Below are positions 13,853 to 40,681 of a stretch of DNA of 64,000 bases, in pieces. Source of the stretch: an uncultured Gammaproteobacteria bacterium (GTDB lineage: Bacteria > Patescibacteriota > Patescibacteriia > VMEV01 > CAYQCH01); assembly GCA_964503955.1 (NCBI GenBank), contig CAZDCG010000001.1:109804-173803 (forward strand). Direction: 5' to 3'. A program made the position numbers and the translations under genes. Numbering within the stretch: position 1 is the first letter of the stretch; each line of letters starts with the position of its first letter. The notes under the pieces are model-generated. The model had not been told where the DNA came from. It did not search any database and worked only from the letters and a program-made list of their open reading frames with translations.

Positions 13853-14021
13853 AGGATTGAAAATGAATTTAATAGTAAAAGGATTCTTCCCTAAGTATAG
13901 AGGAAATCCAGGAGCGAGGGCAATAAATTTGTCAATAATTGTGTTAAACGTCAGCGAGCCGGCAGAACAGACAGACCTGTTGGGTCTGAACGTCCTGCCG
14001 GCTCGGCATGGAACTTGTGCC

Positions 14022-15650
14022 CTACTGCATGTAGGGCGTGAACTTGTCGAGCCAGGGATTGGCTCCGAAGTTCACACGCACCCACATCCCCTCATTACCA
14101 CCGTTGGAACCGTACCAGACGGACTGGTTGATGTCCTGTGGGTAAACCCAGTTGGACCTGTTCGTGGTTCCGTCATGGAACCCGACCCACTGAAACACGG
14201 GGATGTTGAAACTGCCCGTGTACTCGACTAGGTGCAGCCCCCACATGTCACCGAACTCATCGGGGAACACCTTCATTGTGGACGTACTGCCTGGGCTGTT
14301 GTACAGGGTGTACGGTGCCCCGGCCCAGGTAGGCTTGCTGATATCCAGCTGGTTCGTGCCGTTGCGGATGCAGTACCGCAGAGCCACGAGGACGGGCACG
14401 ACTCGCTTGCCCGTAGCCGCATCGAGGTAAGGTTCGCCCAGCCGCGTATGCGTATCCACGAACATCCGGGTGGTCCCATTGTCCGTGAATTCGCTCTGCA
14501 GCGGGTTGCCCATCACCACACGTCCCTGGAAGTCCACCGAGTTGCCGTTGTAGGTGGCCACCACGGTGAACGGACCTTCGATGCTAGCCGCCTTGTTCTC
14601 CGGAACCACGAGACGCCACAGCTGCCCGGCTTGGTTATTCACGAGCAGAACCCGATCCGTTCCGCTGGTGATCTGCAGGCTCAGATTGCCGTTGGCCGTG
14701 ACCTCGGTGAAGTCCGTGCCGTTGTAGGCCCAGACCCGGATCTCGCTCCACTCGCCCGGGCTCATGAACGCCCGCATCGAGATGAAGAGGGCGTTGGCCG
14801 GCGGGTCGTCCCCAGTCGAGGCGATCGACACGTCCGAAGACATGGTCACCCCGTTGGGCCGCTCATTGGTGTCGGTGAGGCCGATGATCATCGGTCCGGG
14901 AGCCCAGGCGCGGATGTTGGTCGAGATGTTCTTGTCACGGAACATCACGCGACCGATGGCATCGACCACAACCTTGCCGTCCTCGAACATCTGCCGATCG
15001 GCAACCAGGAAGCGGATCAGGTTCACGTCATTCGTGTTCCCGCCCGTCGCCAGGTTGATCGACCGGTCGAGCTGGTTGGACCAGACACCGACATCCACGT
15101 TGCCGCCGCTATTGGTCAGCGTGATCGATGTGGCCAACTGGTTGCTCGCGTACTTGTTCCCTCCCGTCTGACCGGGATTGGATCCGGACGGAGGAGGAGG
15201 CGGAGGTGTGCCCACGACTTCGATGGCGTCGGCGAAGGTCTTCGTCACGGTCGCGCCGTTCTTGGTCGCCTGCACCGTCAGGTCGGACTTGCCCGTATTC
15301 CCGGTATTCGCCGAGAACAGGCCGTTCTGAGTGATGGAACCGATACCCGTATTGACGAGCGTGTAGACCACCTCGCTGGCCTCGAAGGTGACGAACGTGC
15401 CGTCCTTGAGCTTACCACGCGCGTTGATCTGCTGCTGGTTGCCCTTCACCACCACGGTGTTGGCCACCACGAGCTCGACGGAGTCGAGAGGGCTCTTGCT
15501 GCCCGTATTGGTGTTGTTGCTCCCCGAGTTGTTCGGGGGCGTCATGGGCTGCAGATCGCCCTTGCGGCGCTTGGAGCAGCCGGCGACGAGCATGCCCGCC
15601 ATCAACAGGATCGCGGCACTCACCACGAGGTTGAATCTGAAGAACTGCAT
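14022..15650 (-). CDS. Surface lipoprotein with Big_2-like Ig domain, poly-Pro linker and large C-terminal domain (GC-rich, likely acquired)
   Basis: ATG at 15650 with a GGAGGG SD 6 nt upstream. Signal peptide plus lipobox LVAGC. PPPPPP linker. The ORF-track N-terminal extension to 15854 is rejected. The 538-aa antisense ORF is rejected. Confidence 0.6.
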   Translation of the reverse strand: MQFFRFNLVVSAAILLMAGMLVAGCSKRRKGDLQPMTPPNNSGSNNTNTGSKSPLDSVELVVANTVVVKGNQQQINARGKLKDGTFVTFEASEVVYTLVNTGIGSITQNGLFSANTGNTGKSDLTVQATKNGATVTKTFADAIEVVGTPPPPPPSGSNPGQTGGNKYASNQLATSITLTNSGGNVDVGVWSNQLDRSINLATGGNTNDVNLIRFLVADRQMFEDGKVVVDAIGRVMFRDKNISTNIRAWAPGPMIIGLTDTNERPNGVTMSSDVSIASTGDDPPANALFISMRAFMSPGEWSEIRVWAYNGTDFTEVTANGNLSLQITSGTDRVLLVNNQAGQLWRLVVPENKAASIEGPFTVVATYNGNSVDFQGRVVMGNPLQSEFTDNGTTRMFVDTHTRLGEPYLDAATGKRVVPVLVALRYCIRNGTNQLDISKPTWAGAPYTLYNSPGSTSTMKVFPDEFGDMWGLHLVEYTGSFNIPVFQWVGFHDGTTNRSNWVYPQDINQSVWYGSNGGNEGMWVRVNFGANPWLDKFTPYMQ

Positions 15651-15814
15651 ACATCCCTCCTGGAAGCGGGCCGAACGAAAAATCCCCCGGCCGGACCGGC
15701 CGAAAGGATTTCCCCTGAGATATCCATACCACCCTCTGCCCCACAAATGGCAAAGCTGATGGATGGAACATGGCAAATTAGCAAAAAAGAGAGATTTTGT
15801 CAAGAGACTAAAAA

Positions 15815-15846
15815 TGTCGGGCGCGGGGCTCTGTCCCCGCCCGACT
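15815..15846. repeat. GC-rich hairpin repeat copy 2 (TGTCGGGCGCGGGGCTCTGTCCCCGCCCGAC)
   Basis: Read on the minus strand it is followed by ATTTTT, so it is the likely intrinsic terminator of the malic-enzyme gene. The family is also at 2856 and 57776. Confidence 0.6.
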
Positions 15847-15896
15847 GATCGCAAACAGAGCCTGCGACCGACACTATTTTAATGTTTGGAGCCAGT

Positions 15897-17045
15897 CTAA
15901 CCCCTAGCCGCTTTCATCACAGCCTTAGCTACTTTTTCGGCAATCCCCTTTTGGAGCGGGTTTGGAATGATCAGCGACGGACTCGGCTTTTTCACCGCCT
16001 TTGCCAAAGCATGCGCGGCAGCGACTTTCATCTCTTCCGTGATCTGCTTGGCCCTGATATCTAGAGCACCGCGGAAAATCCCTGGAAATGCCAGTACATT
16101 GTTTACCTGATTAGGAAAATCGCTGCGGCCTGTTGCCACCACTCTGGCTCCGGCCTTTTTGGCCAGATCTGGCATAATTTCAGGAATCGGGTTTGCAAGA
16201 GCAAAGATAATCGAATTCTTATTCATGGAGCGCACCATGGTTTGCGACAGAATATTTCCTTTGCTGACACCAATAAACACGTCGCGTCCAGCCAGCGCCT
16301 CGGCCAGCCCCCCTTTGATATCTTCGTTATTTGTTATATTGAGCAGTTGTTTTTTCACAGCAGAAAGATCTTTGCGTCCGCGATGAATGATCCCCTGGCT
16401 GTCGACAAGCACAATATCTCTGGCTCCCTGGCTATGCAGCAATCTGGTAATCGCCACGCCGGCGGCTCCAACGCCATTGATCACAAAGCGCGTCTCTTCC
16501 ATTCTCCGTTTTGTGATCTTAAGCGCATTGATCAGCCCGGCATATACCACAATAGCCGTTCCATGCTGGTCATCATGAAAGACGGGAATATCAAGCTGCT
16601 TTTTCAACTCTTCTTCAATGTAAAAACAATTTGGCGCGCCGATATCCTCCAGGTTAATGCCGCCAAAGGTTGGGGCGAGCGCTTTGACGATCGCGATGAC
16701 TTCGTCTGGGTTCTGGGTATTTAAGCAAAGGGGAAACGCGTCCACGTCTGCAAATTCCTTAAACAAAACGGCTTTCCCTTCCATCACCGGCAAAGCAGCT
16801 TCGGGCCCGATATTGCCAAGTCCAAGCACCGAAGAACCGTCGCTGACAACGGCAACCCAGTTCCGGCGAGAGGTATACTGCCATACATCCTCTTTTTTTT
16901 CGGCGATGGCTGAAGAAACAGCTCCCACGCCGGGAGTGTACATGAGAGACAAATCCTTTTTCGTCTTGATCGGTGCTTTCGGCGCAAGAGCGATTTTTCC
17001 CTTAAGCTTCTTATGCAGCTTCTTGGATTCTGAAGCAAAGTTCAT
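15897..17045 (-). CDS. maeB: NAD(P)-dependent malic enzyme (small MaeB-type)
   Basis: LSLMYTPGVGAVSSAIAEKKEDVWQYTSRRNWVAVVSDGSSVLGLGNIGPEAALPVMEGKAVLFKEFADVDAFPL. The start is taken at MNFASE (ATG 17045) rather than the track start. Confidence 0.8.
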   Translation of the reverse strand: MNFASESKKLHKKLKGKIALAPKAPIKTKKDLSLMYTPGVGAVSSAIAEKKEDVWQYTSRRNWVAVVSDGSSVLGLGNIGPEAALPVMEGKAVLFKEFADVDAFPLCLNTQNPDEVIAIVKALAPTFGGINLEDIGAPNCFYIEEELKKQLDIPVFHDDQHGTAIVVYAGLINALKITKRRMEETRFVINGVGAAGVAITRLLHSQGARDIVLVDSQGIIHRGRKDLSAVKKQLLNITNNEDIKGGLAEALAGRDVFIGVSKGNILSQTMVRSMNKNSIIFALANPIPEIMPDLAKKAGARVVATGRSDFPNQVNNVLAFPGIFRGALDIRAKQITEEMKVAAAHALAKAVKKPSPSLIIPNPLQKGIAEKVAKAVMKAARG

Positions 17046-26143: not shown

Positions 26144-27013
26144 GTGCCACTGGAGGACATCGTGCATGAGATCACCCTTATCGGGGAAGCCGGCGGCATG
26201 CGTAATGCATTTGCTTCCGGCCTTAAAAATGGATTTATCCAAAAAGGGCTGCACCCTGACATGATCAGCCGCGCCTATGGCTGCTCATCGGCAGTTCCGC
26301 AGCTCGCCTACTTCCTTACCGGCGATTGCGCGCAGACGCGCCGGATCTGGCTGAGGCTTACGGATCGAGCGCTTCTCAATCCGCGGCGAGTTTTCAGCGC
26401 CAAGCACGTGGGCGATATTGACCGGCTGGTCGACCATCACTGCGCGACCCTGAAGATACCCAAGCTTGACGAGGTGCGCCTCTTCGCCGTCCTGGCACAT
26501 CACAAATCCGCCGAGCCGCATTACCTGCGCGTGACCAGCACGAACGCACGCGAGGTACTGAAAGCGGGCTGCGTGGTCCCCACGCTTGGCCGTCCAATCT
26601 ATGTCAGCGGAGAACGCTACATTGACGGAGGGGTTCTAGACCCGCTCCCCGTCATTCACGCTTATAAAGAGGGCGCGCGCAGGATCATCGTTATCAGCAA
26701 CCGGCCGGCAGGCTATGCGCCTCGAGGAGCCATAAGAGAGCTGATCCTTCCCTGGCTGCTGTTTTGCAACCACCCAAAGCTGCTTGCGCGCTTCTCCCGC
26801 CTTTGGGAACACTACAATCAAACCATCGAGTTCATGAAGCGGCCTCCAGCCGATCTCGACCTGCTTGTGATACGGCCCGACCACCCGCTTCCACCCATGC
26901 TCACACGCAATCCGCGGCTCGTCCGCCAGGCCTACAACGCAGGCCGGCAGATCGCAAGCCGAGAATGGCCGAGAGTGGAGCAATTCCTCTCGCCGAAAAA
27001 GAGCCCCGCCTGA
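26144..27013 (+). CDS. Patatin-like phospholipase family protein (GC-rich, about 60%)
   Basis: Oxyanion-hole-like LIGEAGGMRNAFASG, nucleophile elbow YGCSSA (G-x-S-x-A instead of G-x-S-x-G) and the DGG motif IDGGVLDPLPV. Confidence 0.6.
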   Translation: MPLEDIVHEITLIGEAGGMRNAFASGLKNGFIQKGLHPDMISRAYGCSSAVPQLAYFLTGDCAQTRRIWLRLTDRALLNPRRVFSAKHVGDIDRLVDHHCATLKIPKLDEVRLFAVLAHHKSAEPHYLRVTSTNAREVLKAGCVVPTLGRPIYVSGERYIDGGVLDPLPVIHAYKEGARRIIVISNRPAGYAPRGAIRELILPWLLFCNHPKLLARFSRLWEHYNQTIEFMKRPPADLDLLVIRPDHPLPPMLTRNPRLVRQAYNAGRQIASREWPRVEQFLSPKKSPA

Positions 27014-27035
27014 CGGCCCGGGGCTCTTTGATTTT
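26996..27035 (+). terminator. Rho-independent terminator GAGCCCCG-cctgacggcc-CGGGGCTC + TTTGATTTTG
   Basis: An 8-bp perfect stem overlapping the patatin stop codon, with a T-rich tail. Confidence 0.6.
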
Positions 27036-27089
27036 GTACACAAGATATGACAAACCGCCCTGCGAAAACAGAAAAGAAGCTCTCGGCGT

Positions 27090-27103
27090 ATGCTATACTG
27101 TAA
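27090..27103 (+). promoter_or_regulatory. Candidate extended -10 element TGcTATACT upstream of the 27125-33614 operon
   Basis: gcgtaTGCTATACTgtaa lies 22 nt before the ATG at 27125. No good -35. Confidence 0.3.
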
Positions 27104-27124: not shown

Positions 27125-28156
27125 ATGGAAGGCAATTACTCAGCATGGGATATCAATATCCCGGATTTTTATGGTTTGGAACACGATCGCGACAAGCGTT
27201 TGTTCCTGATCCGTTTTGCTGTTCTCGCCCCCTCAAGTCATAATAGCCAGCCTTGGAAATTTCGTGTTTCCGATCAGACAATCGAAATCCGCCCTGAATC
27301 AAGCCGAGCCCTGCCGGACAGCGACGCAGACAACCGGCAGCTATTTATCAGCCTCGGATGCGCCATGGCCAATCTCCTCATTGCAGCTGAGCATTATGGA
27401 TATGCAACTGAAACTTTCATACAAGAGGCGGGGGCAGCTAGTTTCATACAAATCACCTTGCAACAACAAGACGACCGCCATTCGCGCGCATCGCAGCTGG
27501 AGCTGATCTACGCAATCTCTGAGCGCGTCACAAGCCGCGATAAATTCACGGAAACGATCATACCGGATTCGCTGCAGCGGTTCTTGCAAACAGCCAAAGA
27601 ACAGGATCTTTCCATCTTTTTAATCGATGAGCAAAACGTCAAGGAACAGATCGCGGATTGCGTCATGCGGGCGACCGATCAAGCCATGGCAGATAAACAA
27701 TTCCGTACCGAGCTTTCTCAATACGTTAAACCCAATACGACGAAGGATTTTCTCGGAATGCCTGCTTTTGGGATGGGCATTCCCACCCCTCTGTCACTGA
27801 TAGCCCCTCGAATCATCAAACATTTCGATGTAGGCAAACTCTCCCGCAAAACGGAAATGAATCTGCTGAAATCACATACGCCGTTTATGGGGATCATTGC
27901 CTCTGAGCAGGATACGCCAAAGGCATGGATCAAAACCGGAGCATTCTATCAGCAAATAGCACTGCGGGCGCATGCAAACGGGCTCGCCACGCACCCGCTG
28001 GCCGCGGCCATTCAAATTGGCGACCACTATAAAAATCTGCAGACAATTCTTCAGACAACCGCGCGCCCGCAATTCTTCTTCAGGCTTGGTATTGCCAAAT
28101 CCTTCCCCCATCACAGCCCGCGCATACCCGCAAAGGATGTAATCGAATCCGTATGA
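27125..28156 (+). CDS. Acg-family nitroreductase-like FMN-binding protein (double nitroreductase fold)
   Basis: VLAPSSHNSQPWKF motif near the N-terminus and 343-aa length typical of the Acg/Rv2032 family rather than SagB (no PSAGxLYP). Confidence 0.6.
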   Translation: MEGNYSAWDINIPDFYGLEHDRDKRLFLIRFAVLAPSSHNSQPWKFRVSDQTIEIRPESSRALPDSDADNRQLFISLGCAMANLLIAAEHYGYATETFIQEAGAASFIQITLQQQDDRHSRASQLELIYAISERVTSRDKFTETIIPDSLQRFLQTAKEQDLSIFLIDEQNVKEQIADCVMRATDQAMADKQFRTELSQYVKPNTTKDFLGMPAFGMGIPTPLSLIAPRIIKHFDVGKLSRKTEMNLLKSHTPFMGIIASEQDTPKAWIKTGAFYQQIALRAHANGLATHPLAAAIQIGDHYKNLQTILQTTARPQFFFRLGIAKSFPHHSPRIPAKDVIESV

Positions 28157-29208
28157 ACAGTTTAACCGCTTTACCTGAATACGACGGACATAAATATGTT
28201 CTGCGCTTCCAGGAGCCGCAATCCCAGCTGGTCGGCTATATTGCCATTCACCGAAGCGATGCCTTGCGCCCCGCTTTTGGCGCTACCCGCTTATGGCATT
28301 ATGAAACCGAAGAAGAAGCCCTGGCGGACGTTCTCCGGCTTTCAAAAGGCATGTCCAAAAAATCGGCATTGGCAGGATTGCGCTATGGAGGCGCCAAGGC
28401 GGTTATTATCGAACCGAAAGGAGCATATAATAGGAACAGACTCCTAAAAGCATATGCGCATGTTGTCAACGATCTTCACGGCCAATTTATTACCGGAACG
28501 GATGCAGGCATGACCAGAGATGATGTCATTGAAATGCGTAAATATTCGCGCTATTTCGTGGGGGTAAACGTGGATCCGACAAATTATACGGTGTTGGGCA
28601 TTTTATCAGCAATAAAAACAACGCTGAAATTCCTCTATCAGGACGGATCGCTTCAGCAACGTAGTTTTGCGATCCAAGGAGCAGGAAAAATCGGGGGGGA
28701 ACTCATCCGCCTCCTTTACCCCCAAACAAAGGCAATCTACGTAAGCGAAATTGACAAAACAAAGGTTTCAACATTAAAGGATCGTTACCCGGAAATTCAG
28801 TTTTGCGAGCCAGACGATATTCACAAAATGCCCGTTGATATTTTTTCCCCTTGTGCGCTGGCATACGCCATCAATAGAAAAACCGTTGCGGAAATCCAAA
28901 GCAAAGCTGTCGTAGGAGGAGCGAATAATCAGCTTGAAAATACCACATTAGCGGATGAACTCAGACTTCGAGGCATTCTCTACGCGCCTGATTATGTCGT
29001 AAATGCGGGAGGATTGATCAGCGTAGCGAGCGAATACGAATCGCATCACCTGTCTCCGCCTATCCTTGAAGAAAAGATTGGAAAAATCAGCTCTCTGCTG
29101 GAGCAGCTCTTCCGCGAAAGCTCCACCCTCAGAGCTTCAACGGTAGCAATCGCGGAACAGATAGCTCATCAACAGATAAATAGTTTTGAACCTTATCGAT
29201 ATAACTGA
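28153..29208 (+). CDS. Glu/Leu/Phe/Val dehydrogenase family protein (leucine/phenylalanine dehydrogenase-like)
   Basis: GATRLWHYETEEEALADVLRLSKGMSKKSALAGLRYGGAKAVII (catalytic Lys region), NAD Rossmann GAGKIGG, C-terminal NAGGLI. There is a 4-bp overlap with the upstream gene. Confidence 0.75.
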   Translation: MNSLTALPEYDGHKYVLRFQEPQSQLVGYIAIHRSDALRPAFGATRLWHYETEEEALADVLRLSKGMSKKSALAGLRYGGAKAVIIEPKGAYNRNRLLKAYAHVVNDLHGQFITGTDAGMTRDDVIEMRKYSRYFVGVNVDPTNYTVLGILSAIKTTLKFLYQDGSLQQRSFAIQGAGKIGGELIRLLYPQTKAIYVSEIDKTKVSTLKDRYPEIQFCEPDDIHKMPVDIFSPCALAYAINRKTVAEIQSKAVVGGANNQLENTTLADELRLRGILYAPDYVVNAGGLISVASEYESHHLSPPILEEKIGKISSLLEQLFRESSTLRASTVAIAEQIAHQQINSFEPYRYN

Positions 29209-29211
29209 CCT

Positions 29212-30024
29212 ATGAACAATATCCCAGATTCGATCGCTCCTGATTGGTGGAAAAGCGAAGGAGGATTCTTCGGAAAACTGTACGCGCAAGCCGATGACTC
29301 ATTGGAAGGATTTCTCAACCAGCCGCTCAGCATGAATCAACGCTTAATGGATGAAGTTGAAGGAGTCATGCGGCTGACAAATACCCAACCCGCTTCCCGG
29401 TTGATGGATTGTCCATCCGGCTACGGGCGCCACTCCCTCGGGCTTGCCCAAAAAGGGCTTGAGGTCACAGGCGTTGACATCAACGATGAACACCTTGAAC
29501 TCGCCGAACAGTCCCGTCAAAAAAGAGGAATCAAGAATGTTCGTTGGATAAAGCGCGACATGCGCGATCTTGATTTCGCAGAGGAATTCGACGCGGCCAT
29601 CAACATGTTCTATTCTTTTGGATTCTTTCAAGACGAAGCCGACGACCAGAAATCAATCGAGAATTTCTACCGCGCACTCAAACCGGGCGGGAAATGGCTG
29701 ATGCACACGTTTATCACGATTCCCAAAATCCGAGCCGGCAATTACAAAAAGCATGATGTCAGAACGCTCACATCTGGAAATAAGCTTGAGCTATACCGTG
29801 ATTTTGATGAGACGACCAAGAGAGAGATTGGCACCTGGTCTATTGTGAAACCGGATGGCAGCCGGGAAGAACTCGCGCCGTATTCAATGAGAATCTACGA
29901 CACAACGGAATATGAAGCGATGACGAAAAAAGCAGGTTTTAGCAAATGTGAGGCATTTGGTGACTGGAAAGGCACTCCGTATACCCCAGAATCCGAATTG
30001 CTGATTTTCGTCGCGACAAAATAA
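29212..30024 (+). CDS. Class I SAM-dependent methyltransferase
   Basis: Motif I LMDCPSGYGRHSLGLAQKG-LEVTGVDIN, with acidic residues at the ends of beta2 and beta4. Confidence 0.7.
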   Translation: MNNIPDSIAPDWWKSEGGFFGKLYAQADDSLEGFLNQPLSMNQRLMDEVEGVMRLTNTQPASRLMDCPSGYGRHSLGLAQKGLEVTGVDINDEHLELAEQSRQKRGIKNVRWIKRDMRDLDFAEEFDAAINMFYSFGFFQDEADDQKSIENFYRALKPGGKWLMHTFITIPKIRAGNYKKHDVRTLTSGNKLELYRDFDETTKREIGTWSIVKPDGSREELAPYSMRIYDTTEYEAMTKKAGFSKCEAFGDWKGTPYTPESELLIFVATK

Positions 30025-30026
30025 GT

Positions 30027-31550
30027 ATGGATTTTACGAAATCCTCAACCCAGCTTGATACAAAACAAGGATGGGAAGAATTTTTCAAGGAAAAAATTAT
30101 TGATTTTCCTGATCTTTCTGATACAAACGCTTTTTCACAAAACGCGTTGATGCTGTTCCGAAAAATGGCAACCAGTGTACCTGCTTATAAGGATTTCCTT
30201 AAAAAGCAGAGGGTCGCTCCAGAAAAAATCAAAACGGTTTCCGACCTAAAACAAGTTCCGTGTATCGACAAAGCAAATTATCTGAACCGGTATCCCCTCG
30301 AAGCCTTGTGCTGGAACGGCGATCTTCGCGCCCCCATTATCTCATCAAGCTCGGGTTCATCTGGCACCCCGACCTTCTGGCCTCGATCAGAGGAAATCGA
30401 ACTTGAAACAAGCATTATTTACGAGCTGTTTCTTACCCAGATTTACAAAATTCACGAAAAAAAAACCCTTTTGATCAATGGGTTTGCAATGGGAATCTAC
30501 ATTGGAGGAAGTTTCACATTAAACGCCTGCATGCGTTTAAGCAAAAAAGGCTACCCACTCTCCATAGTCACCCCTGGGATCAACAAGAAAGATTTCCTGA
30601 ACAGCCTTGAGCGCCTTCATCCCTACTTCGATCAAGTTATCCTTGGAGGGTACCCACCCTTTATTAAAGATATCCTCGATGATTGCAAGCAACAGGGCTT
30701 GGAGATCCCCTCAGGAAAACTGAAACTCTTTCTCGCAGCGGAAATGATCAGCGAAACTTTCCGTTCTTATTTGTATAAGCACGCATGCATAGACAATGAC
30801 GCATACTACTTCAATTCAATGAATCTGTACGGAACGGCTGACGCGGCCATTGCTGGACATGAAACCCCACTCACCATTTTCCTGAGCCGCCTTCTAGCAA
30901 ACAACGCAGAACTTTGCAGAAAAATTTTTGATGTTTCGTATGTTCCGTCTTTGAATATGGCCTACCCATTCTTCAAACACATGGATCTGCTTGAAAATGA
31001 GTTGCTTATCTCAACGTGGAATAATGCTATTCCCCTATGCCGGTATAACATTCACGACAAGGGGAAACTTTTCACCTTGGAGGACATGCTGCAAATCCTA
31101 GATCAAGCACAGATTTCCAAAGCAGAATTGGAACAAAGTATTGGAAACACGTTCCTTCTTCCTTACCAGTATGTGGCGGTTTATGGAAAAAGTGATAATA
31201 CCGCATCTCTGTACGGCCTGCTGATCTACCCCGAGACAATTAAAAAAGCTCTTTTTTCTCCAGAGTTAAATGATACCATCACGGGGAAATTTACGATGCA
31301 AACAAAACTTGACGCAAAGCAGAACCAATTCCTGGAAATCCACATTGAATTGCTTCCAAACGCGACAAGATCTCAAGAAATGGAAGAAAAAATTGTCGCC
31401 GCAATCGTGCGCACATTAATCGAAGATAATGCGGAATATCGATTCCTTCAAAAAGATCACCCGGAGCGATACAAACCCATCATTCGCCTCCACCCTTACG
31501 GAGAGCCGGAATATTTCCCGGAAGGAATTAAACAAAAATGGACGAGATAA
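30027..31550 (+). CDS. PaaK-like adenylate-forming enzyme (phenylacetate-CoA ligase / coenzyme F390 synthetase family, ANL superfamily)
   Basis: Phosphate-binding loop SSSGSSGTPTFWP and overall about 500-aa PaaK-like architecture. Confidence 0.65.
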   Translation: MDFTKSSTQLDTKQGWEEFFKEKIIDFPDLSDTNAFSQNALMLFRKMATSVPAYKDFLKKQRVAPEKIKTVSDLKQVPCIDKANYLNRYPLEALCWNGDLRAPIISSSSGSSGTPTFWPRSEEIELETSIIYELFLTQIYKIHEKKTLLINGFAMGIYIGGSFTLNACMRLSKKGYPLSIVTPGINKKDFLNSLERLHPYFDQVILGGYPPFIKDILDDCKQQGLEIPSGKLKLFLAAEMISETFRSYLYKHACIDNDAYYFNSMNLYGTADAAIAGHETPLTIFLSRLLANNAELCRKIFDVSYVPSLNMAYPFFKHMDLLENELLISTWNNAIPLCRYNIHDKGKLFTLEDMLQILDQAQISKAELEQSIGNTFLLPYQYVAVYGKSDNTASLYGLLIYPETIKKALFSPELNDTITGKFTMQTKLDAKQNQFLEIHIELLPNATRSQEMEEKIVAAIVRTLIEDNAEYRFLQKDHPERYKPIIRLHPYGEPEYFPEGIKQKWTR

Positions 31551-31551
31551 T

Positions 31552-32724
31552 ATGACTCTAGAGCAGCACCTCAAACGTTTCACGCAAGATCAGCGATTTA
31601 CTCCAGAATTTTTCGACTTGTCCAAAAGCATAGACCGAAAGAGATTGGCAGCATACTTTGACCAAAACTTGATTGTCGAAGTAAACGATTCTTATACGGA
31701 CCAATTAGAGGAATTATTTCAAATAGACAATCCCAGATTAGTTCATGCACAAGCGTATGAAACCTCATTGGCTGAATTTCTTGAGGAAATAGAATCGCGA
31801 GCCCCGCTTTACCAACAAGGTAAATGGGTCTATTTCCCATGGAACAGAAAATTGATCCATATTCTTGATGAACCATTTTTTCAAAAAGTCCGGTTCTCAA
31901 GAAACCGTAATTATATCAGCCGTGACGAACAAGCAAATTTCTACCACAGCTCTATCGGTATAGCAGGCTTGAGTGTTGGAAACAGCATCGCAACGACCAT
32001 CGTAATGCTCGGGGGAGCAAAACATATCCGATTGGCTGATTTTGATGAGCTTAGCTTATCAAACTGCAATAGGATCCGCACGAGCATTGAAAACCTTGGA
32101 ATTCCAAAAATTATTATCACGGCCAGACAAATCTACGAACTCAACCCGTACGCAAACGTGCAGATATTCCCTGAGGGGATCACCGAAGAAAATATTGAAG
32201 CATTCTTGAGTTCATCGCCCCCCCTCGATATCGTTATCGACGAGCTTGATAACCTCGCCATGAAATACTTGTTAAGAATGAAAGCGAAGGAAAACAGAAT
32301 TCCCGTACTTATGGGGACAGATAACGGTGACGACTGCATTATCGATTTGGAACGATACGATCTTGACCCCACACGGGAGATTTTTCACGGCCGCCTAAAC
32401 GGTGTAGAATTCAATGATCTAAAAAATCTCACAAAAGCACAAATAGGAAAAATCGCGGGGCGCCTTATCGGCATTGAAAATATTTCCTCGAGAATGATGG
32501 AATCTCTTCCCGAAATCGGAACATCGCTCATTTCATGGCCCCAGCTTGGAAGCGCGGCTCTTATGAATGGAGCTGCTCTGGCCTACTGTGCTCGCAGAAT
32601 TCTCAACAAGCAGCCAATTGCAGACGGCAGATGTTTCCTTTCCGTTGAAAAAGAGCTTTTGCCAGCCAAATCATATGATGCAGAACTGCAGAAAAGGAAA
32701 AAACTAGCTAGCCAATTAATGTGA
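31552..32724 (+). CDS. E1/ThiF/MoeB-family adenylyltransferase with about 170-aa N-terminal extension
   Basis: Rossmann nucleotide loop SIGIAGLSVGNSIATTIVMLGGAKHIRLADFDELSLSNCNRI matches the ThiF family. There are no C-terminal CxxC pairs. ATG at 31552 is 1 nt after the PaaK-like stop, so the ORF-track start at 31429 is rejected. Confidence 0.7.
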   Translation: MTLEQHLKRFTQDQRFTPEFFDLSKSIDRKRLAAYFDQNLIVEVNDSYTDQLEELFQIDNPRLVHAQAYETSLAEFLEEIESRAPLYQQGKWVYFPWNRKLIHILDEPFFQKVRFSRNRNYISRDEQANFYHSSIGIAGLSVGNSIATTIVMLGGAKHIRLADFDELSLSNCNRIRTSIENLGIPKIIITARQIYELNPYANVQIFPEGITEENIEAFLSSSPPLDIVIDELDNLAMKYLLRMKAKENRIPVLMGTDNGDDCIIDLERYDLDPTREIFHGRLNGVEFNDLKNLTKAQIGKIAGRLIGIENISSRMMESLPEIGTSLISWPQLGSAALMNGAALAYCARRILNKQPIADGRCFLSVEKELLPAKSYDAELQKRKKLASQLM

Positions 32725-33614
32725 TTTTTGTGACAGATGCCACATCAAAGCTATTACAAAAATGGGTAACATCTCCTGTGAAAGAATCTACTTTCAGCTC
32801 GGGGGGGACCATCATCAAGTATATAAAAACAGGGAACGGTCCTGCGGTATTGATGCTGCACGGAGCCAATATGGGGTGGAAGCAATGGTTTCCAAACATT
32901 GATCATTTAGCGAAATCTTGCACCATTTATGCTATCGATCTTCCAGGGGCGGGCGAATCATCTCCTATAAATTACGATGAAGTATGCTTTGAAAAAAACT
33001 ATGTACAACCCGTTTCATTTTTCATGAAGAATGTTCTCCCTCCTGATTTTTCAATGATTGCGCATTCTTTCTCAGGATGGTTATCTATGCGTCTCATTGA
33101 ACGGGAGCATATACCACAAAGCCTCGTCCTCATAAATCCGGTCGGCTTCACCAGGAAAATCCCTAAAAAACACCTCGCTTTATCATCCCGGGCGTTAACA
33201 CAGCTTCTTGTGAGGACGGTAATGAAACCGACTCAGAAAAATATCCGGAAGTTTTGCCGCGATGTTTGCTATAATAGTAGTACCATCCCCCCCGAGTTTA
33301 TCAATGCTTATACGGCAGATCTTCGTTTCGACAACCACCCCTTTTGCTTCATTCACAGCTTGATAGGATCAATGAAACTAAAAGAGGAACTGCTGATTCA
33401 GCCAAGCAACTATCTCCCACAAGTACCAATCTTACTTATCCATGGCAAATATGATCCGTTGGTTTTGGAAGAAACGATGACGAGAGCCAAAGAACTCCTT
33501 CGTCCACGGCGCTTTTACCAGTTTCAAAAATCAGGCCATGTCCCCTCAATTGAAGAATATCAACTCTTCAATTCTCTTGCATCGAGCTTCATAAGACAAA
33601 CATGCAGTTCATAA
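32721..33614 (+). CDS. Alpha/beta-hydrolase fold protein
   Basis: HGANMGWKQW oxyanion region and nucleophile elbow AHSFSGW. It overlaps the E1-like stop. Confidence 0.65.
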   Translation: MIFVTDATSKLLQKWVTSPVKESTFSSGGTIIKYIKTGNGPAVLMLHGANMGWKQWFPNIDHLAKSCTIYAIDLPGAGESSPINYDEVCFEKNYVQPVSFFMKNVLPPDFSMIAHSFSGWLSMRLIEREHIPQSLVLINPVGFTRKIPKKHLALSSRALTQLLVRTVMKPTQKNIRKFCRDVCYNSSTIPPEFINAYTADLRFDNHPFCFIHSLIGSMKLKEELLIQPSNYLPQVPILLIHGKYDPLVLEETMTRAKELLRPRRFYQFQKSGHVPSIEEYQLFNSLASSFIRQTCSS

Positions 33615-35227
33615 CGGAAATAATCTCTCTTCCTTCCTTTAGCCTGAGTTTTCTTGTCATTTCGGTATGCATAAACTTTATCCTAGCAATATTGGTCTTA
33701 AAGAATGATTATCGCAGCGACACAAACAGGTTGTACGGCATCCTTTCCATTTTTCTGTCGATTTGGCTCGTAGTAATTTTTGGCTCATCACGTTCAGATT
33801 TATCCCCCCAGAATGCTCTTTTCCTTGCAAGATTGAGTCTGTTCATTGCAGCTCCAATGACGCTGACATTCTTTATATTCGCCCATACTATCCCTTCGGA
33901 TCGAATACAGCTCAAGAAAAAATGGCTGGCAACAAGCGTACTAGTCACTCTTTTTATCATGGCAGCATGCTTTACGCCGTTTCTGATGATTCTAGGAGAA
34001 CAGAATGGAATAGAGCCATCGTGGGGAATGGCCGGCTTTGGTACATTAACTATTTTCTACAGTTTAAGCGCTGTTTTTCTCCTCACAAAAAAGCTCCTCA
34101 CATCTCAAGGGATCTTACGAAAGCAGTACCAATACATCATGCTTGGGCTGCTCCTTATGACCGGATTTATCACATCCACGATTTTTTTCCCCGTCCTGCT
34201 TGAAAACAATCAGACATACCTGCCCTTAGCCCCGCTTTACGCGCTGTTTTTCTTAGGCGCTACCGCGTATTCCATCATTCATCATCAACTCTTTGATTTA
34301 AAAATCATCGCGACTAAATTTTTTGTTGCGATTCTGTCAATCATCTTTTTTGCAAGGCTCTTCGCGACAAGTGACGTCGACACATTTCTATTTGAACTCT
34401 CCATCTTCCTCTCTACCGTCTTCTTCGGCTATCTCCTGATAAAGAGCGTAAATAAGGAAGTCGAGCAGCGCGAGCAGCTGGCAAAGCTCAACCGCCGCCT
34501 AAAGCGCTCCAATATCCGCTTAGAAGAATTATTAAAACTCAAATCAGAATTTGTGGGTATTGCTTCCCATCAGCTGCGAACTCCCCTGACCGTTCTTCGA
34601 GGACTGCTTGATATGCAGGTAAACGGCGATTTCAACAACCTCCCGGAAGCAAAAGTAAAATCCCTTCAAATGGACATGCTTAAAAGCGCGGTTCGTCTCA
34701 ACAGTCTCATCAGCGATCTGATGGATATGACGAAAATGGAAGGCGGCATCACTTTGCAGATTAAAGAAGTCAATCTATGTGATTTGCTGTCTGAAATCAC
34801 GCAGCAGCTCTCGTCAAATTTCAAGCAAAAAAATCTAGAAACCAGCATGGTTTGCGTCAATGAAATCCCGCCAATTGAAGGCGATCCTAAATACCTGCAT
34901 GAAGCCTTCTCAAACCTCATCGACAATGCCGAAAAGTACACTCAAAAAGGAGGCATTTCTATCCGCGTGCGGAGAGTGGGGCCGGAAGTCGTGGTTAAAA
35001 TTGTCGATACCGGTATCGGTTTAACCGCGGAAGACAAAGCCAAACTGTTTAAAAAATTCACGCGCGGCGAACGATCCACGACCATCCACACCGAAGGAAC
35101 CGGACTTGGACTCTATATCGTCAAACGCGTGATCGACGCGCATAACGGCCAGATCAGCTTCGACAGCGAGGGAGCCGGGAAAGGAACGACCGTAACGGTC
35201 ACCTTGCCGATCAAATACGAAAACTAG
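33602..35227 (+). CDS. Sensor histidine kinase with N-terminal 6-7 TM sensing domain (orphan, no adjacent response regulator)
   Basis: H-box FVGIASHQLRTPL, N/G boxes LIDNAEKYT and GTGLGLYIVKRVIDAHNG. Confidence 0.8.
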   Translation: MQFITEIISLPSFSLSFLVISVCINFILAILVLKNDYRSDTNRLYGILSIFLSIWLVVIFGSSRSDLSPQNALFLARLSLFIAAPMTLTFFIFAHTIPSDRIQLKKKWLATSVLVTLFIMAACFTPFLMILGEQNGIEPSWGMAGFGTLTIFYSLSAVFLLTKKLLTSQGILRKQYQYIMLGLLLMTGFITSTIFFPVLLENNQTYLPLAPLYALFFLGATAYSIIHHQLFDLKIIATKFFVAILSIIFFARLFATSDVDTFLFELSIFLSTVFFGYLLIKSVNKEVEQREQLAKLNRRLKRSNIRLEELLKLKSEFVGIASHQLRTPLTVLRGLLDMQVNGDFNNLPEAKVKSLQMDMLKSAVRLNSLISDLMDMTKMEGGITLQIKEVNLCDLLSEITQQLSSNFKQKNLETSMVCVNEIPPIEGDPKYLHEAFSNLIDNAEKYTQKGGISIRVRRVGPEVVVKIVDTGIGLTAEDKAKLFKKFTRGERSTTIHTEGTGLGLYIVKRVIDAHNGQISFDSEGAGKGTTVTVTLPIKYEN

Positions 35228-35423
35228 GTTCCGTTTTCGTAGGGAATTACCCTTTGCACGTCTTCGCGCAAATTATCGCTTCTGTCAAGATCCCGCTCCG
35301 GCAAAGACGCGTCTTTATACGCGATTGCCTGAACCAGCAGAACAAGAATGACAAGCAATCCAATCACAAGCACAATAGACCAGCAAGTAACCCATTTGAG
35401 TTTATCGCGTTCTCCTTGGCGCA
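35224..35423 (-). CDS. Small single-TM protein (66 aa)
   Basis: ATG at 35423 is preceded by GGAGGTGG 7 nt upstream. The track start at 35454 is less likely. Confidence 0.45.
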
Positions 35424-35493
35424 TAGTTGACCACCTCCAAGGATAGAACCACAACCTGCGGCCTTTTCTTGCAAAAGCAAAATCCCCACACTG

Positions 35494-35564
35494 CTCGGAG
35501 ACTAGGATTCGAACCTAGATTACCAGGGCCAGAACCTGGCGTCCTACCATTAGACGATCTCCGA
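35494..35564 (-). tRNA. tRNA-Gln (anticodon CUG)
   Basis: Manual fold gives a 7-bp acceptor stem with a U1-A72 pair (as in tRNA-Gln), D-arm GTC/AATGGTAG/GAC, anticodon stem CCAGG/CCTGG with loop UUCUGGC, T-arm CTAGG-TTCGAAT-CCTAG and discriminator G. CCA is not encoded. Confidence 0.8.
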
Positions 35565-38119: not shown

Positions 38120-40681
38120 TTACAGATTTTCAAATGGCGACGGTCTTTTCGCCCCCTGCTTTGCCGCATGCACGCGGTCTAAAATTTCCTGTTCAACTTC
38201 CAAGCGGGACCGGCCGTATTTAAGACGCGATAATTCCGCCATGGCATTCTTAATGGCAAAACCATGCCCCTCTTCCCAGGCAGCGCTCTTCATGGAAAAT
38301 GGCCTGAGCGTCTGATTATTCACCAGCAATTTCACGTAGAACGAGAATTGCTCCATATTCAGCAAATCATATTCGTTAAAGACAGGCGCCAATTCTTTTG
38401 CAAAAATCTCCGCGTCTTCCACGCCGACTTTGCTGACTACCATTGTTCCGACATTTCCAAAAACCGCGTCTTTGATTTCTGAATCCCCCCCCTCAACAAG
38501 CTGGCCAACATATTGATGAGCAATGACCAGATTAAGCAAATACTTGCGTGCCTCTGAAAGAATGATGGCAATACTGTCGGTCGTAAAGTTTTGGAATTCA
38601 TCGATATACAAGTAAAAATCCTTTCGCTGCGATTTGGGTTGATCCGTGCGGCTCAAGGCCGCCATGAGAATTTTACCCACAATCACCATGCCAAGCAGAT
38701 GCGCGTTCAGCTCACCAATCTTTCCTTTGGACAGCTTTACCAACAAAATCTTTTGCTGGTCCATGAGTTCGCGGAAATTAAAGGCGCTCTTCTGCTGGCC
38801 GATAATCGGGCGCATAACATCGTTTGAGACGAATTGCGTCAGCTTGCTGGTGATATAGGGCACCATATTGGCCAGCGCCGCTTCCCCGCCCGCTTTTTCA
38901 GCTTCATTACGCCAGAAATCCACCACCACCTGGTTGCGGCATTTGGAAAGTTTATATGCCCTGAATTGTTCGTCTGAAAGCACGCGGGAAATCTCCATCA
39001 AGGTCGATCCGGATTCAGGATCATCCATGATCAGCAGCATGGCATTACGCATATACTGCTCAAACATCGGACCGCCCGTTGATTTCAGGTCGTATAGCTT
39101 GTCAAAGATTTTGAGCATTTCATTAATCACGAACGTTTTCTGCTCAGGGTATTTGGGATCATAATCAAGCAAATTCATGCCAAGCGGATACTCAATATCG
39201 GCAGGATCAAAAATCACCACGTCTTCCACGCGATGTTTGGGGATCCCCCCCAGCACATCGTCGATAAGGTCTCCATGCGGATCAATCACGCAAACGCCTT
39301 CGCCGGCCTCGATGTCGCGCCTTGCCATTGAGGTAATGAAGTATGTTTTCCCCGCCCCGGATTTACCAATCACGTACATGTGGCGGCGGCGGTCTTCACG
39401 CAGCATATGCACGGCCGTCTTTTTTCCTCGATATTCGTTATAGCCAAGCAATATCCCTTCCTGCGGCACATTAAGCGAAACAGGCGCGCGCTTTGCTTCA
39501 AGCCATTGGATATTCGTTGTTTCCGTTTGCGGCAAAGGGAAATGATAGAGGCTGGCCAGCTCCTCCGTATTAAAGATCATTTTATTTTTCGGATTGAAAT
39601 TGCGAAAAATAAAATCTTCGATCAGACGCTTCTGATTCTTTGGCTTGCGCTGACGGAAACTATTGCCGTATTCATAAATATTGTACTGGGCAAAAGCACC
39701 TGTGATCGAATCCAAATAGGCCTGCGCTTGAAAAGACTGGCCGGCGGAAACAACCACGCGGATATTCGCTTCAACGCCTCCCTTGCTGGCTTTTGTTTCG
39801 AGCCGTTTGATCATTTCCTCTTCAAGCGGTGAAAGCTGATACGGCTGATCATCTTTTTTGCCGGATGAAAACATGCTTGAAATAAAGCCGGAAAATCCGC
39901 CGGAAACCGCTTTTTTCGCTTCTTTCAAAGGCTTGCCTTGCCGCATGGCAGACGCAATTTTTCTCCCCCACTGATGCCATTGCCTTGGAGCGGAACGAAC
40001 AATGATTTGAATCGCCGCGCCGTCAAGCCCCTGGATTTGCGACAAAGGATGCGTGAGCGCGTTTAATGGATCCGATTCAAGCTCCTGATACGTTTTTATC
40101 GGGAAATACGGCTCGCGCTCAAAGGTGAGCGATGTCCCCATGGCATATCCCTGCGGATGAAAGATATTGTAATCTTCCGCTTCCTCGATATGCGCCTGCG
40201 GCCACTGCGCCTGAATCTGCTGCTCAATAAACTTATGCAGATATTGCGGCGCGGCCACATAGAAGGAAACGCGCTCATTGTGAACGACAATTTCAAACGA
40301 AATGGTATCTTCGCGGCCAAAGAACCAGGCTTTCAATCCGCTTTGCGGTTTCAGTCCGCCAATCGCGCTGAAAAATGTTTCCGCCACCGAAATGGATTCG
40401 CGCACGCCTTGCTGCGAATCCTGGGATTTCGCCTCCCCTTCCTGCTTAAGGCTTTCTTTTGGCACGAGAATCTGTAAAACCCGTTTTTCGTACTGAGCCG
40501 GCAAAGACCTTCCTTTGCGGGCAAGCGATCTAAGGACGAGGAGAACGATGATGCCAAACGCAACAAGGAGCGCGATGAGCAGAATAAGCAATACCGTGGG
40601 ATCACGGAAAAATTGCTCGGCATTTGCCTGCGAAGCCTGTGTATTGACCGACACAGGCAATTGGAAGAGAAACGAGAACAT
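38120..40681 (-). CDS. TraD/VirD4-like (type IV coupling protein / DUF87 AAA-like) membrane ATPase, 853 aa
   Basis: Two N-terminal TM helices, Walker A GKSGAGKT, Walker B YLYIDEFQNF and IAHQ motif. The family-level call is tentative. Confidence 0.5.
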   Translation of the reverse strand: MFSFLFQLPVSVNTQASQANAEQFFRDPTVLLILLIALLVAFGIIVLLVLRSLARKGRSLPAQYEKRVLQILVPKESLKQEGEAKSQDSQQGVRESISVAETFFSAIGGLKPQSGLKAWFFGREDTISFEIVVHNERVSFYVAAPQYLHKFIEQQIQAQWPQAHIEEAEDYNIFHPQGYAMGTSLTFEREPYFPIKTYQELESDPLNALTHPLSQIQGLDGAAIQIIVRSAPRQWHQWGRKIASAMRQGKPLKEAKKAVSGGFSGFISSMFSSGKKDDQPYQLSPLEEEMIKRLETKASKGGVEANIRVVVSAGQSFQAQAYLDSITGAFAQYNIYEYGNSFRQRKPKNQKRLIEDFIFRNFNPKNKMIFNTEELASLYHFPLPQTETTNIQWLEAKRAPVSLNVPQEGILLGYNEYRGKKTAVHMLREDRRRHMYVIGKSGAGKTYFITSMARRDIEAGEGVCVIDPHGDLIDDVLGGIPKHRVEDVVIFDPADIEYPLGMNLLDYDPKYPEQKTFVINEMLKIFDKLYDLKSTGGPMFEQYMRNAMLLIMDDPESGSTLMEISRVLSDEQFRAYKLSKCRNQVVVDFWRNEAEKAGGEAALANMVPYITSKLTQFVSNDVMRPIIGQQKSAFNFRELMDQQKILLVKLSKGKIGELNAHLLGMVIVGKILMAALSRTDQPKSQRKDFYLYIDEFQNFTTDSIAIILSEARKYLLNLVIAHQYVGQLVEGGDSEIKDAVFGNVGTMVVSKVGVEDAEIFAKELAPVFNEYDLLNMEQFSFYVKLLVNNQTLRPFSMKSAAWEEGHGFAIKNAMAELSRLKYGRSRLEVEQEILDRVHAAKQGAKRPSPFENL

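Follow-up and report, generated by a model that had tools for sequence, protein, structure and literature searches.

The operon considered here occupies positions 27125-35227, on the plus strand, of a 64,000-nucleotide stretch of DNA (the window) from contig CAZDCG010000001.1 of assembly GCA_964503955.1, an uncultured bacterium placed by GTDB in the Patescibacteriota. In the list of open reading frames (ORFs) of the window it appears as seven co-directional, near gap-free ORFs, among them those of a ThiF-like cyclase, a flavin-dependent oxidase (FDO), a PaaK-like adenylate-forming ligase (ANL) and a histidine kinase (HK). An earlier note on this DNA had reported seven plus-strand genes with junctions of -4, +3, +2, +1, -4 and -13 nt, as the ORF coordinates bear out. 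All seven of its family calls were confirmed by Pfam and NCBIfam or, for the ligase, which gave no Pfam hit, by predicted fold, and the motifs APSSHNSQPW, GGAKAVI and SSGSSGTP are all found in the translations. The genes and their predicted products are the following.

27125-28156, plus strand: Acg/Rv3131-family FMN (flavin mononucleotide) oxidoreductase, predicted desaturase partner of the ThiF-like protein (NF047509)
28153-29208, plus strand: NAD(P)-dependent Leu/Phe/Trp-type (ELFV) amino-acid dehydrogenase (PF00208 and PF02812)
29212-30024, plus strand: class I S-adenosylmethionine (SAM)-dependent methyltransferase, putative tailoring gene specific to the window (Methyltransf_25/31/11)
30027-31550, plus strand: PaaK-clade ANL adenylate-forming ligase, 507 aa (AlphaFold2 (AF2)/Foldseek fold, PDB profile)
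31552-32724, plus strand: ThiF/E1-like ATP-dependent cyclase, predicted N-terminal half of an Rv1355c/TrzS-type synthetase as a separate gene (NF005901)
32721-33614 (alternative start GTG 32778), plus strand: alpha/beta-fold hydrolase, accessory gene of the dehydrogenase/hydrolase subtype (Abhydrolase_1/6)
33602-35227, plus strand: polytopic membrane sensor HK (HisKA_7TM, HisKA and HATPase_c; Pfam)

Two of the gene starts can be read in more than one way. The listed start of the ThiF ORF is ATG 31429, and the 390-aa product from 31552 is the form held in public collections, to which homologues align end to end. The hydrolase start at GTG 32721 differs from the public gene call at GTG 32778, which would turn the junction into +53 nt; alignments with hydrolase homologues start at residue 28. 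The alpha/beta hydrolase family given in the earlier note stands for this protein, but its nucleophile elbow reads AHSFSG and is not a strict GxSxG.

The ThiF-like cyclase and the flavin-dependent oxidase

The author of the earlier note knew of no described pathway with this combination of genes. The pairing of a ThiF-like protein with a nitroreductase-family oxidase is, however, that of a characterised oxazolone synthetase, as in OxzB, TyzB/TyzC and TrzS. TrzS acts on N-acyl tryptophan, which it first cyclises in an ATP-dependent step and then desaturates with O2, giving N-acyl tryptazolone (PMC12856293). The same chemistry is carried out by OxzB of Pseudoalteromonas rubra (bioRxiv 10.1101/2020.06.11.147165) and, in M. 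tuberculosis, by TyzB and TyzC, whose cyclase and desaturase activities work as separate proteins (PMC10404671). In the enzymes characterised so far, the ThiF part activates an N-acyl amino acid by adenylation of its carboxylate and closes the oxazolone ring, after which the oxidase desaturates the C-alpha/C-beta bond (PMC10404671; PMC12856293). A 2025 review of ThiF proteins lists OxzB as the sole ThiF-like enzyme with a small-molecule substrate (PMC12596934).

The ThiF-like protein of the window matches the Rv1355c family model NF005901 with 352.5 bits (E 4e-105), its residues 11-373 aligning with positions 6-343 of the 722 in the model; the score lies under the whole-protein cutoff of 476 only because half of the model is matched. 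The GxGxxG, ADFDxLxLSNxNR and DExDN motifs are invariant in an alignment of the window protein with its relatives and mycobacterial Rv1355c members, and no invariant acidic or basic motif column is lost in the ThiF alignment (the catalytic residues of TrzS are D217 and R540 in M. smegmatis numbering; PMC12856293). The N-terminal extension of ~115 residues can likewise be aligned to the mycobacterial Rv1355c proteins, with which it shares an invariant W..PW and other columns. The best PDB profile match of the family is TcdA (E 1.7e-15), followed by ThiF, UBA5 and MoeB, and TcdA has been described as making an oxazolone ring on tRNA (PMC12596934). An AF2 model of the protein (pLDDT, the predicted local distance difference test, of 87) matches the folds of AclA, MoeB, ThiF, PaaA and SUMO E1. 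The top fold match of the core is AclA from Tenacibaculum discolor (PDB 9egb, "in complex with substrate", released August 2025), and the chemistry of AclA could bear on the cyclase mechanism.

The oxidase is a member of the Acg/Rv3131 family (NF047509, 233.6 bits against a cutoff of 199), and its best PDB match is Acg itself (2ymv, E 3.6e-11). A lower score (73 bits) is reached with the C-terminal half of the Rv1355c model (positions 378-653). Because the two proteins match different halves of the same Rv1355c model, the window carries, by homology, a split oxazolone synthetase: the ThiF-like protein and the oxidase are the two halves of an enzyme of the Rv1355c/TrzS-OxzB type, encoded at opposite ends of the operon. 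A natural fusion points the same way. Between the window oxidase and the FDO domain (431-752) of P0302, a fused ThiF-FDO protein, identity is 32% (E 2e-53), and the window ThiF is 38% identical to the N-terminal half of P0302; since P0302 fuses homologous domains, this Rosetta-stone evidence argues that the window proteins work together. In addition, mycobacterial Rv1355c proteins cover 85-96% of a concatenated patescibacterial ThiF+FDO query, at ~33% identity.

The window therefore shares with TrzA/TrzS (Rv1356c/Rv1355c; PMC12856293) the same ThiF-like cyclase family, N-terminal extension included, and an oxidase of the nitroreductase superfamily. It is unlike TrzA/TrzS in that its two domains are separate genes at opposite operon ends, its oxidase lies in the Acg/Rv3131 branch and identity stands at ~33%; the cassette also lacks the TrzA acyltransferase, contains a PaaK-like ligase and a dehydrogenase (DH) instead, and includes a seven-transmembrane (7TM) HK. 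With the OxzA/OxzB and TyzA/TyzB/TyzC (Rv2336-2338c) systems it shares the predicted ATP-dependent cyclisation and flavin-dependent desaturation of an N-acyl amino acid, which is aromatic in those systems.

The cassette in other Patescibacteria

Homologues of the ThiF-like protein number more than 1200 at E<=0.001; those listed are ~50% identical, and every one with an organism name comes from Patescibacteria. When one genome per species was scanned, 269 loci emerged, of which the best 80 were taken for neighbourhood analysis, with ORFs called and their products clustered. All 80 lie in metagenome-assembled genomes (MAGs) of Patescibacteria, namely Uhr-, Lipton-, Doudna-, Taylor-, Adler- and Nomurabacteria, Paceibacteria and MAGs labelled Saccharibacteria. 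Among everything retrieved in this analysis the cassette is restricted to Patescibacteria.

The canonical order is PaaK-like ligase, ThiF, FDO and 7TM HK, with median gaps along this core of 10, 6 and 2 nt, the last being that between FDO and HK. The ligase stands directly 5' of ThiF in 58 of the 68 loci with sufficient upstream flank. Where at least 6 kb is available on both sides (37 loci), a ligase is present in 37, an FDO in 34, an HK in 32, a deaminating enzyme in 23 and a receiver-only response regulator in 14. Genes outside the core vary and include DnaK/DnaJ, RNase R, SMC, TypA, AspRS, TrpRS and others; as the neighbours beyond the core differ between loci, the linkage of the core is not simple genome synteny. 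The earlier note had proposed a single compact accessory operon for an amino-acid-derived small molecule and had left its co-conservation across relatives to be checked. Both gene content and the recurrence of the core (ligase 37/37, oxidase 34/37, kinase 32/37) support the proposal.

Oxidases of the related loci fall into two mutually exclusive groups. Those of the first (47 loci) are encoded between ThiF and the kinase and match positions 376-716 of the Rv1355c model with 209-235 bits, an arrangement that looks like TrzS split exactly at its domain boundary. Those of the second (14 loci, the window included) are Acg-like and variable in position, often at the operon start. Most patescibacterial relatives thus share the oxidase branch and order of TrzS, and some carry the fusion itself: fused ThiF-FDO proteins (P0252, P0256, P0302 and P0304) occur in Patescibacteria in the same gene context. 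Two loci with a fused gene (L082 and L084) read lyase, ligase, ThiF-FDO and kinase, and two others (L085 and L086) read dehydrogenase, ligase, ThiF-FDO, alpha/beta hydrolase, kinase and receiver. The window belongs to this dehydrogenase/hydrolase subtype, from which it differs by its detached oxidase, an extra methyltransferase and no receiver gene. A hydrolase homologue lies between ThiF(-FDO) and kinase in L018, L021, L085 and L086.

Some loci carry further genes beside the core. A radical SAM/SPASM protein of ~316-448 aa is encoded near the ligase-ThiF pair in L005, L017, L068 and L075; in L005, which holds a second ligase-ThiF pair, its gene lies directly 3' of ThiF, in the usual place of the oxidase. 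Four loci (L013, L029, L050 and L075) have an alanine racemase gene at or close to the upstream side of ThiF, which hints that some variants may use a D-amino acid. In the first three of these, a gene for an RNHCP-domain zinc-ribbon protein stands between the racemase gene and ThiF, directly 5' of the latter; in L075 the racemase gene precedes a lyase-ligase-ThiF run, and no RNHCP-domain gene was seen.

Kinase, ligase and the predicted pathway

The kinase has ~8 hydrophobic segments with short loops (residues 15-280) and its H-box His at position 323. The earlier note called it an orphan, which holds for the window, where no response regulator is encoded in the 64 kb even in a search with a hidden Markov model (HMM) trained on the receiver genes that related loci contain. 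It is no passenger, however, being among the most conserved members of the cassette in relatives, where it is kept in split, fused and DH-, tyrosine ammonia-lyase (TAL)- and hydrolase-bearing variants while the outer flanks change. In L034, L051, L079 and L081 the cassette is followed by two pairs of kinase and receiver-only response regulator (RR), in the order HK-RR-HK-RR, which suggests a duplication of the sensing module in some lineages.

Judging from synteny, the kinase may be functionally coupled to the biosynthetic genes and would most likely sense a lipophilic product or a related cue, signalling in the relatives via the adjacent receiver-only response regulator. That its ligand is the pathway product itself is a tentative proposal. 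Gene layout offers a likeness in CqsA/CqsS, LuxM/LuxN and AgrBD/AgrC, in which genes for the synthesis of a small molecule are co-transcribed with a multi-pass HK without extracytoplasmic domain. The likeness is one of layout: the signal chemistry differs, and the response regulator of the relatives is receiver-only. On the chemical side, oxazolones have been likened to acyl-homoserine lactones (AHLs) and are hydrolytically labile (PMC12856293), a trait of many signals.

The kinase could instead be a mere neighbour, or a generic regulator sensing something unrelated, and the metabolite a non-signalling compound such as an antimicrobial, an envelope lipid-like molecule or a stress protectant. 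Stress or antimicrobial roles have indeed been proposed for known oxazolones (PMC12856293), the window has no response regulator, and the kinase is lacking within 6 kb in five of the 37 fully flanked loci. Against this stand the median gap of 2 nt after the oxidase, the attachment of the kinase in all architectural variants, and its loop-less polytopic sensor, of the type that, as in CqsS, LuxN and AgrC, binds membrane-soluble ligands. We regard this alternative as possible, and it is the one that survives best.

The ligase resembles PaaK only in its fold and in the N-terminal P-loop region. Its match to the PaaK N-terminal region is weak (TIGR02155, 45.9 bits against a cutoff of 646.3), so that it does not qualify as a PaaK equivalog, and it also matches FlxY weakly in NCBIfam. 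A profile of its family retrieves PaaK from the PDB with E 2.4e-12, and its AF2 model (pLDDT 88) matches PaaK1/2 and BT_0428 in Foldseek (E ~1e-19 to 1e-20), and also AjiA1, ClxA and HCL. A GH3-type amido synthetase as its closest relative was not supported, the fold matches being of the PaaK clade. The family is large: clustered at 50% identity, a library of 1.84 billion proteins holds 1036 representatives of it with E<=1e-30. The ligases NatL2, AjiA1 and ClxA of benzoxazole pathways belong to the same fold clade (AjiA1 6wuq, E 1e-15; ClxA 9s45, E 1e-13). These three are a precedent for PaaK-like ligases with a non-CoA (coenzyme A) nucleophile, AjiA1 and ClxA being CoA-independent ester- or amide-forming enzymes that pass the acyl-adenylate to that nucleophile. 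They are unlike the window ligase in that identity to AjiA1 and ClxA is 14-16%, the window ligase is ~75 residues longer, and the substrates are unrelated.

In the relatives, the gene just upstream of the ligase encodes an ELFV dehydrogenase in 25 loci and an aromatic amino-acid lyase in 13; elsewhere it encodes an aminotransferase, of the IlvE-type class IV or the HisC-like class I/II. The window dehydrogenase has both ELFV Pfam domains and the GGAKAVI region; it scores 263 bits with Trp_DH_ScyB against an equivalog cutoff of 600, and its best PDB matches are Trp dehydrogenase (5b37, 1.5e-59) and LeuDH (1.8e-56), PheDH being also among them. It is predicted to convert an amino acid to the 2-oxo acid. 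The lyase of the 13 loci best matches the flexirubin tyrosine ammonia-lyase FlxA (615 bits). By their families, dehydrogenase, lyase and both types of aminotransferase would all deaminate an amino acid to a carboxylic acid, and they appear interchangeable at the position upstream of the ligase. Flexirubin FlxA/FlxY (NF053541 and NF053551) offers a parallel, in that an aromatic amino acid is deaminated and the acid so formed is adenylated, and the 13 loci have their FlxA-like lyase 5' of the ligase. The parallel is limited by scores below the equivalog cutoffs, by the DH that the window has in place of a lyase, and by a partner that is a ThiF cyclase and not a polyketide/fatty-acid-type synthase.

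This mode of supply would set the cassette apart from the characterised oxazolone pathways, in which the N-acyl amino acid comes from a FeeM/AHL-synthase-like acyltransferase using acyl-CoA or acyl-ACP (acyl carrier protein) (PMC10404671; PMC12856293; bioRxiv 10.1101/2020.06.11.147165); the Oxz and Tyz systems use fatty acyl-CoA in this way, and the patescibacterial cassette has no such gene. Pfam and NCBIfam found no N-acyl amino acid synthase of the OxzA/TyzA/TrzA type among the operon proteins or the neighbouring patatin-like protein, and no acyltransferase family is conserved across the 80 related loci. Multi-domain proteins in the database join the remaining activities, as ANL-ThiF (P0365), ThiF-ANL (P0408), DH-ANL (P0394) and DH-ANL-ThiF (P0390). 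Because ThiF-oxidase, ANL-ThiF, DH-ANL and DH-ANL-ThiF fusions all occur, a single pathway is supported.

The second alternative to be weighed is that the ligase is an ordinary aryl-acid CoA ligase, with an unlinked N-acyltransferase, or with ThiF and FDO acting on another carboxylate, so that the product would not be an N-acyl oxazolone. Its closest solved structures and NCBIfam matches are those of CoA ligases (PaaK, BT_0428, HCL and FlxY), and to judge by the NCBIfam names the flexirubin precedent gives a CoA thioester. The fusions of ANL with ThiF and of DH with ANL and ThiF nevertheless suggest a direct hand-over from ligase to cyclase, and the lack of a conserved acyltransferase family in the 80 loci, the presence of AjiA1 and ClxA (whose chemistry is CoA-independent) among the fold matches, and the general lack of CoA biosynthesis in many Patescibacteria argue in the same direction. 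We consider a CoA ligase unlikely.

The earlier note had also drawn an analogy with MccB and microcin C. In a microcin C-like pathway, or another pathway to a ribosomally synthesised and post-translationally modified peptide (RiPP), the N-extended E1 would adenylate or cyclise the C-terminus of the peptide in the style of MccB, PaaA or TOMM systems, and the flavoenzyme and the methyltransferase would tailor it. N-terminally extended ThiF-like enzymes are known to work on peptides, and PaaA (5ff5) is the fifth-best fold match; pairs of an E1-like protein and an FMN dehydrogenase are found in azole-forming RiPP systems, and four related loci have a radical SAM/SPASM gene near the core. The analogy did not hold up. 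MccB is absent from the PDB profile matches at E<1e-3 and from the top 50 Foldseek matches, and the N-terminal extension fits the small-molecule family Rv1355c/TrzS, with which it aligns. No short ORF ending in Asn/Asp, as expected of an MccA-like precursor, was found in the operon and its flanks; junctions of -13 to +3 nt in the window leave no room for one, gaps in the relatives are similarly small (median 2-10 nt), and none of the small ORFs that lie downstream or in the 111-nt gap upstream makes a credible precursor candidate. An azole RiPP of the thiazole/oxazole-modified microcin or linear azol(in)e-containing peptide (TOMM/LAP) kind was rejected too, there being no YcaO among the operon proteins (Pfam) or the conserved families of the related loci. 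A RiPP is thus very improbable. Still less credible is a catabolic or salvage role, with DH and ligase degrading aromatic or branched-chain amino acids beside an unrelated ThiF and oxidase: the succession of DH and aryl-acid ligase resembles the entry to aromatic amino-acid catabolism, but neither paa nor beta-oxidation genes follow in the window, the ligase reaches 46 bits where 646 are required of a PaaK equivalog, ligase and ThiF are adjacent in 58/68 loci and within 6 kb in 37/37, and fusions exist.

We therefore lean, with some reserve, towards an operon that makes an oxazolone (azlactone)-type N-acyl-(dehydro)amino-acid metabolite and is linked to a membrane sensor kinase. This comes near the second option of the earlier note, a cyclic or activated amino-acid-derived metabolite. 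In the pathway that we propose, the dehydrogenase would oxidatively deaminate a hydrophobic or aromatic amino acid, and the ligase, as gene order and fusions suggest, would adenylate the resulting acid and condense it with a second amino acid through the amino group of the latter. By homology to assayed enzymes, the ThiF-like protein would then adenylate this N-acyl amino acid and cyclise it to the oxazolone, which the FDO would desaturate. Patescibacteria generally lack fatty-acid synthesis and often CoA biosynthesis too, and an ATP-only route from amino acids would suit them because they lack the former.

In the window, the methyltransferase and the hydrolase could provide lineage-specific tailoring, that is, methylation and possibly the opening or turnover of the labile azlactone ring. 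The top NCBIfam match of the methyltransferase is glycine/sarcosine N-methyltransferase, at 56 bits only. Other putative methyltransferases (families c10, c107 and c39) fill accessory positions in related loci. Family c10 (~305 aa; 12 loci, e.g. L028:5363-6283) is mostly encoded between oxidase and kinase, with a few members elsewhere near the cassette; it has no Pfam hit, weak methyltransferase-like PDB profile matches (E 0.008), an LxDLGAGG motif, and an invariant His-His and Trp. A methyltransferase also accompanies the ThiF/nitroreductase pair in the clusters for stieleriacine and for thalassotalic and kyonggic acids, whose stieleriacine-type products are ring-open N-acyl dehydrotyrosines (PMC12479983), pointing to a possible role for a ring-opening hydrolase. 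Those clusters are unlike the window in using an N-acyl amino acid synthase (NAS) where it has an ANL ligase, and in having no dehydrogenase, hydrolase or kinase.

Several points weigh against the proposed pathway. Product identity and chemistry are predictions from gene content. The window oxidase belongs to the Acg/Rv3131 branch and not to that of TrzS, and it is not adjacent to ThiF, being detached at the operon start; moreover, the FDO desaturases known so far use O2, and many Patescibacteria inhabit anoxic places. An amide-forming, CoA-independent activity of the ligase would go beyond its closest solved relatives, which are mostly CoA ligases. As acyl donors, 2-oxo acids differ in their chemistry from aryl-acrylates, so that a role common to DH, TAL and aminotransferases is a presumed one, and the DH and aminotransferases could instead provide the amino-acid nucleophile. 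Some of the multi-domain fusion proteins could be read-through gene calls. The connection to the kinase appears to be one of synteny, in a window without response regulator. Finally, none of the 80 related loci encodes an orthologue of the methyltransferase, and the hydrolase is seen again in L018, L021, L085 and L086 only.

A bolder extension of the oxazolone pathway, and a more doubtful one, is that the cassette of ligase, ThiF, oxidase and 7TM kinase is a self-contained chemical signalling system widespread in Patescibacteria (the Candidate Phyla Radiation), with an oxazolone autoinducer made from scavenged amino acids and the kinase as its receptor. A labile, membrane-permeant azlactone would then be produced without fatty-acid or CoA metabolism, and the receiver-only regulator would act downstream of the kinase. 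The upstream deaminating enzyme and the tailoring genes would give lineage-specific 'dialects', and the hydrolase might serve in signal turnover.

Flanking sequence and the meaning of the cassette

Two signals precede the first gene, as the earlier note had claimed, and both can be read by eye.

~27001-27038, plus strand: hairpin AGAGCCCCG-loop-CGGGGCTCT followed by the T-rich tail TTGATTTTGT; 9-bp GC-rich stem spanning the stop of the upstream patatin gene
~27091-27099, plus strand: TGcTATACT, an extended -10-like element ~26 nt before the first ATG

A Shine-Dalgarno-like GAAGAGG, also read by eye, lies immediately 5' of 27125. The hairpin is plausible as a terminator isolating the operon from the patatin gene. 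A consensus promoter and terminator scan, however, gave no excess of sites over shuffled sequence, its loop limit of 8 nt missing the hairpin, and we regard the promoter and terminator signals at the operon start as plausible rather than proven.

The upstream gene (26144-27013, plus strand) encodes a patatin-like phospholipase with DUF6363. With a GC content of 0.60 and a third-codon-position GC (GC3) of 0.69, against 0.49 for the window, it is a compositional outlier, which suggests recent horizontal acquisition, and in none of the 80 related loci does it neighbour the cassette. GC content is 0.43 in the genes for ligase, ThiF and hydrolase, a slight AT-richness that is insufficient to claim horizontal transfer. 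Downstream, a small ORF for a single-pass membrane protein (35224-35454, minus strand) converges on the end of the kinase gene, and is followed by a tRNA gene (35494-35564, minus strand; Rfam 63 bits) and a terminator-like hairpin at 35614-35595.

Farther away, a high-GC island (0.599) at 14001-16000 holds a pair of long ORFs that overlap on opposite strands, one of 610 aa (14022-15854, minus strand) and one of 538 aa (14232-15848, plus strand), both without Pfam hit at E<=1e-5; it could be a foreign or a repetitive low-complexity gene. An 853-aa protein encoded at 38120-40681 (minus strand) has weak matches to TrwB/VirD4-type coupling proteins and HerA/DUF87 ATPases and an N-terminal membrane segment. 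Type IV secretion-like machinery has reportedly been published for Patescibacteria, and this protein would fit.

By its sequence matches the ThiF-FDO core is of an already known kind. Not described in the literature searched are a substrate supply through a ligase, a deaminating enzyme that can be exchanged, the obligatory presence of the kinase, the restriction to Patescibacteria among everything retrieved, and the breadth within that group. In literature searches, no paper was found that connects oxazolone or ThiF with Patescibacteria, nor was a small-molecule signalling system described for Patescibacteria in the literature searched; quorum sensing and histidine kinases both go unmentioned in a recent perspective on these bacteria.

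Much of the diversity of uncultured bacteria belongs to Patescibacteria, whose genomes are of ~0.5-1 Mb and encode very little biosynthesis. That a cassette of 4-7 genes is kept in more than 1000 sequence clusters of such reduced genomes makes it unlikely to be dispensable. Known to date in Proteobacteria, Actinomycetota and Planctomycetota, oxazolone biosynthesis would be extended to a new phylum-level group. If true, the replacement of an acyl-CoA/ACP acyltransferase by an ATP-dependent PaaK-like ligase would be new enzymology, and the genes of the cassette are small and expressible in E. coli. In this regard, the conserved link to a kinase offers a directly testable hypothesis on the physiological role of oxazolones, a question raised in PMC12856293, and makes the cassette a candidate chemical-signalling system that recurs in hundreds of related uncultured bacteria.

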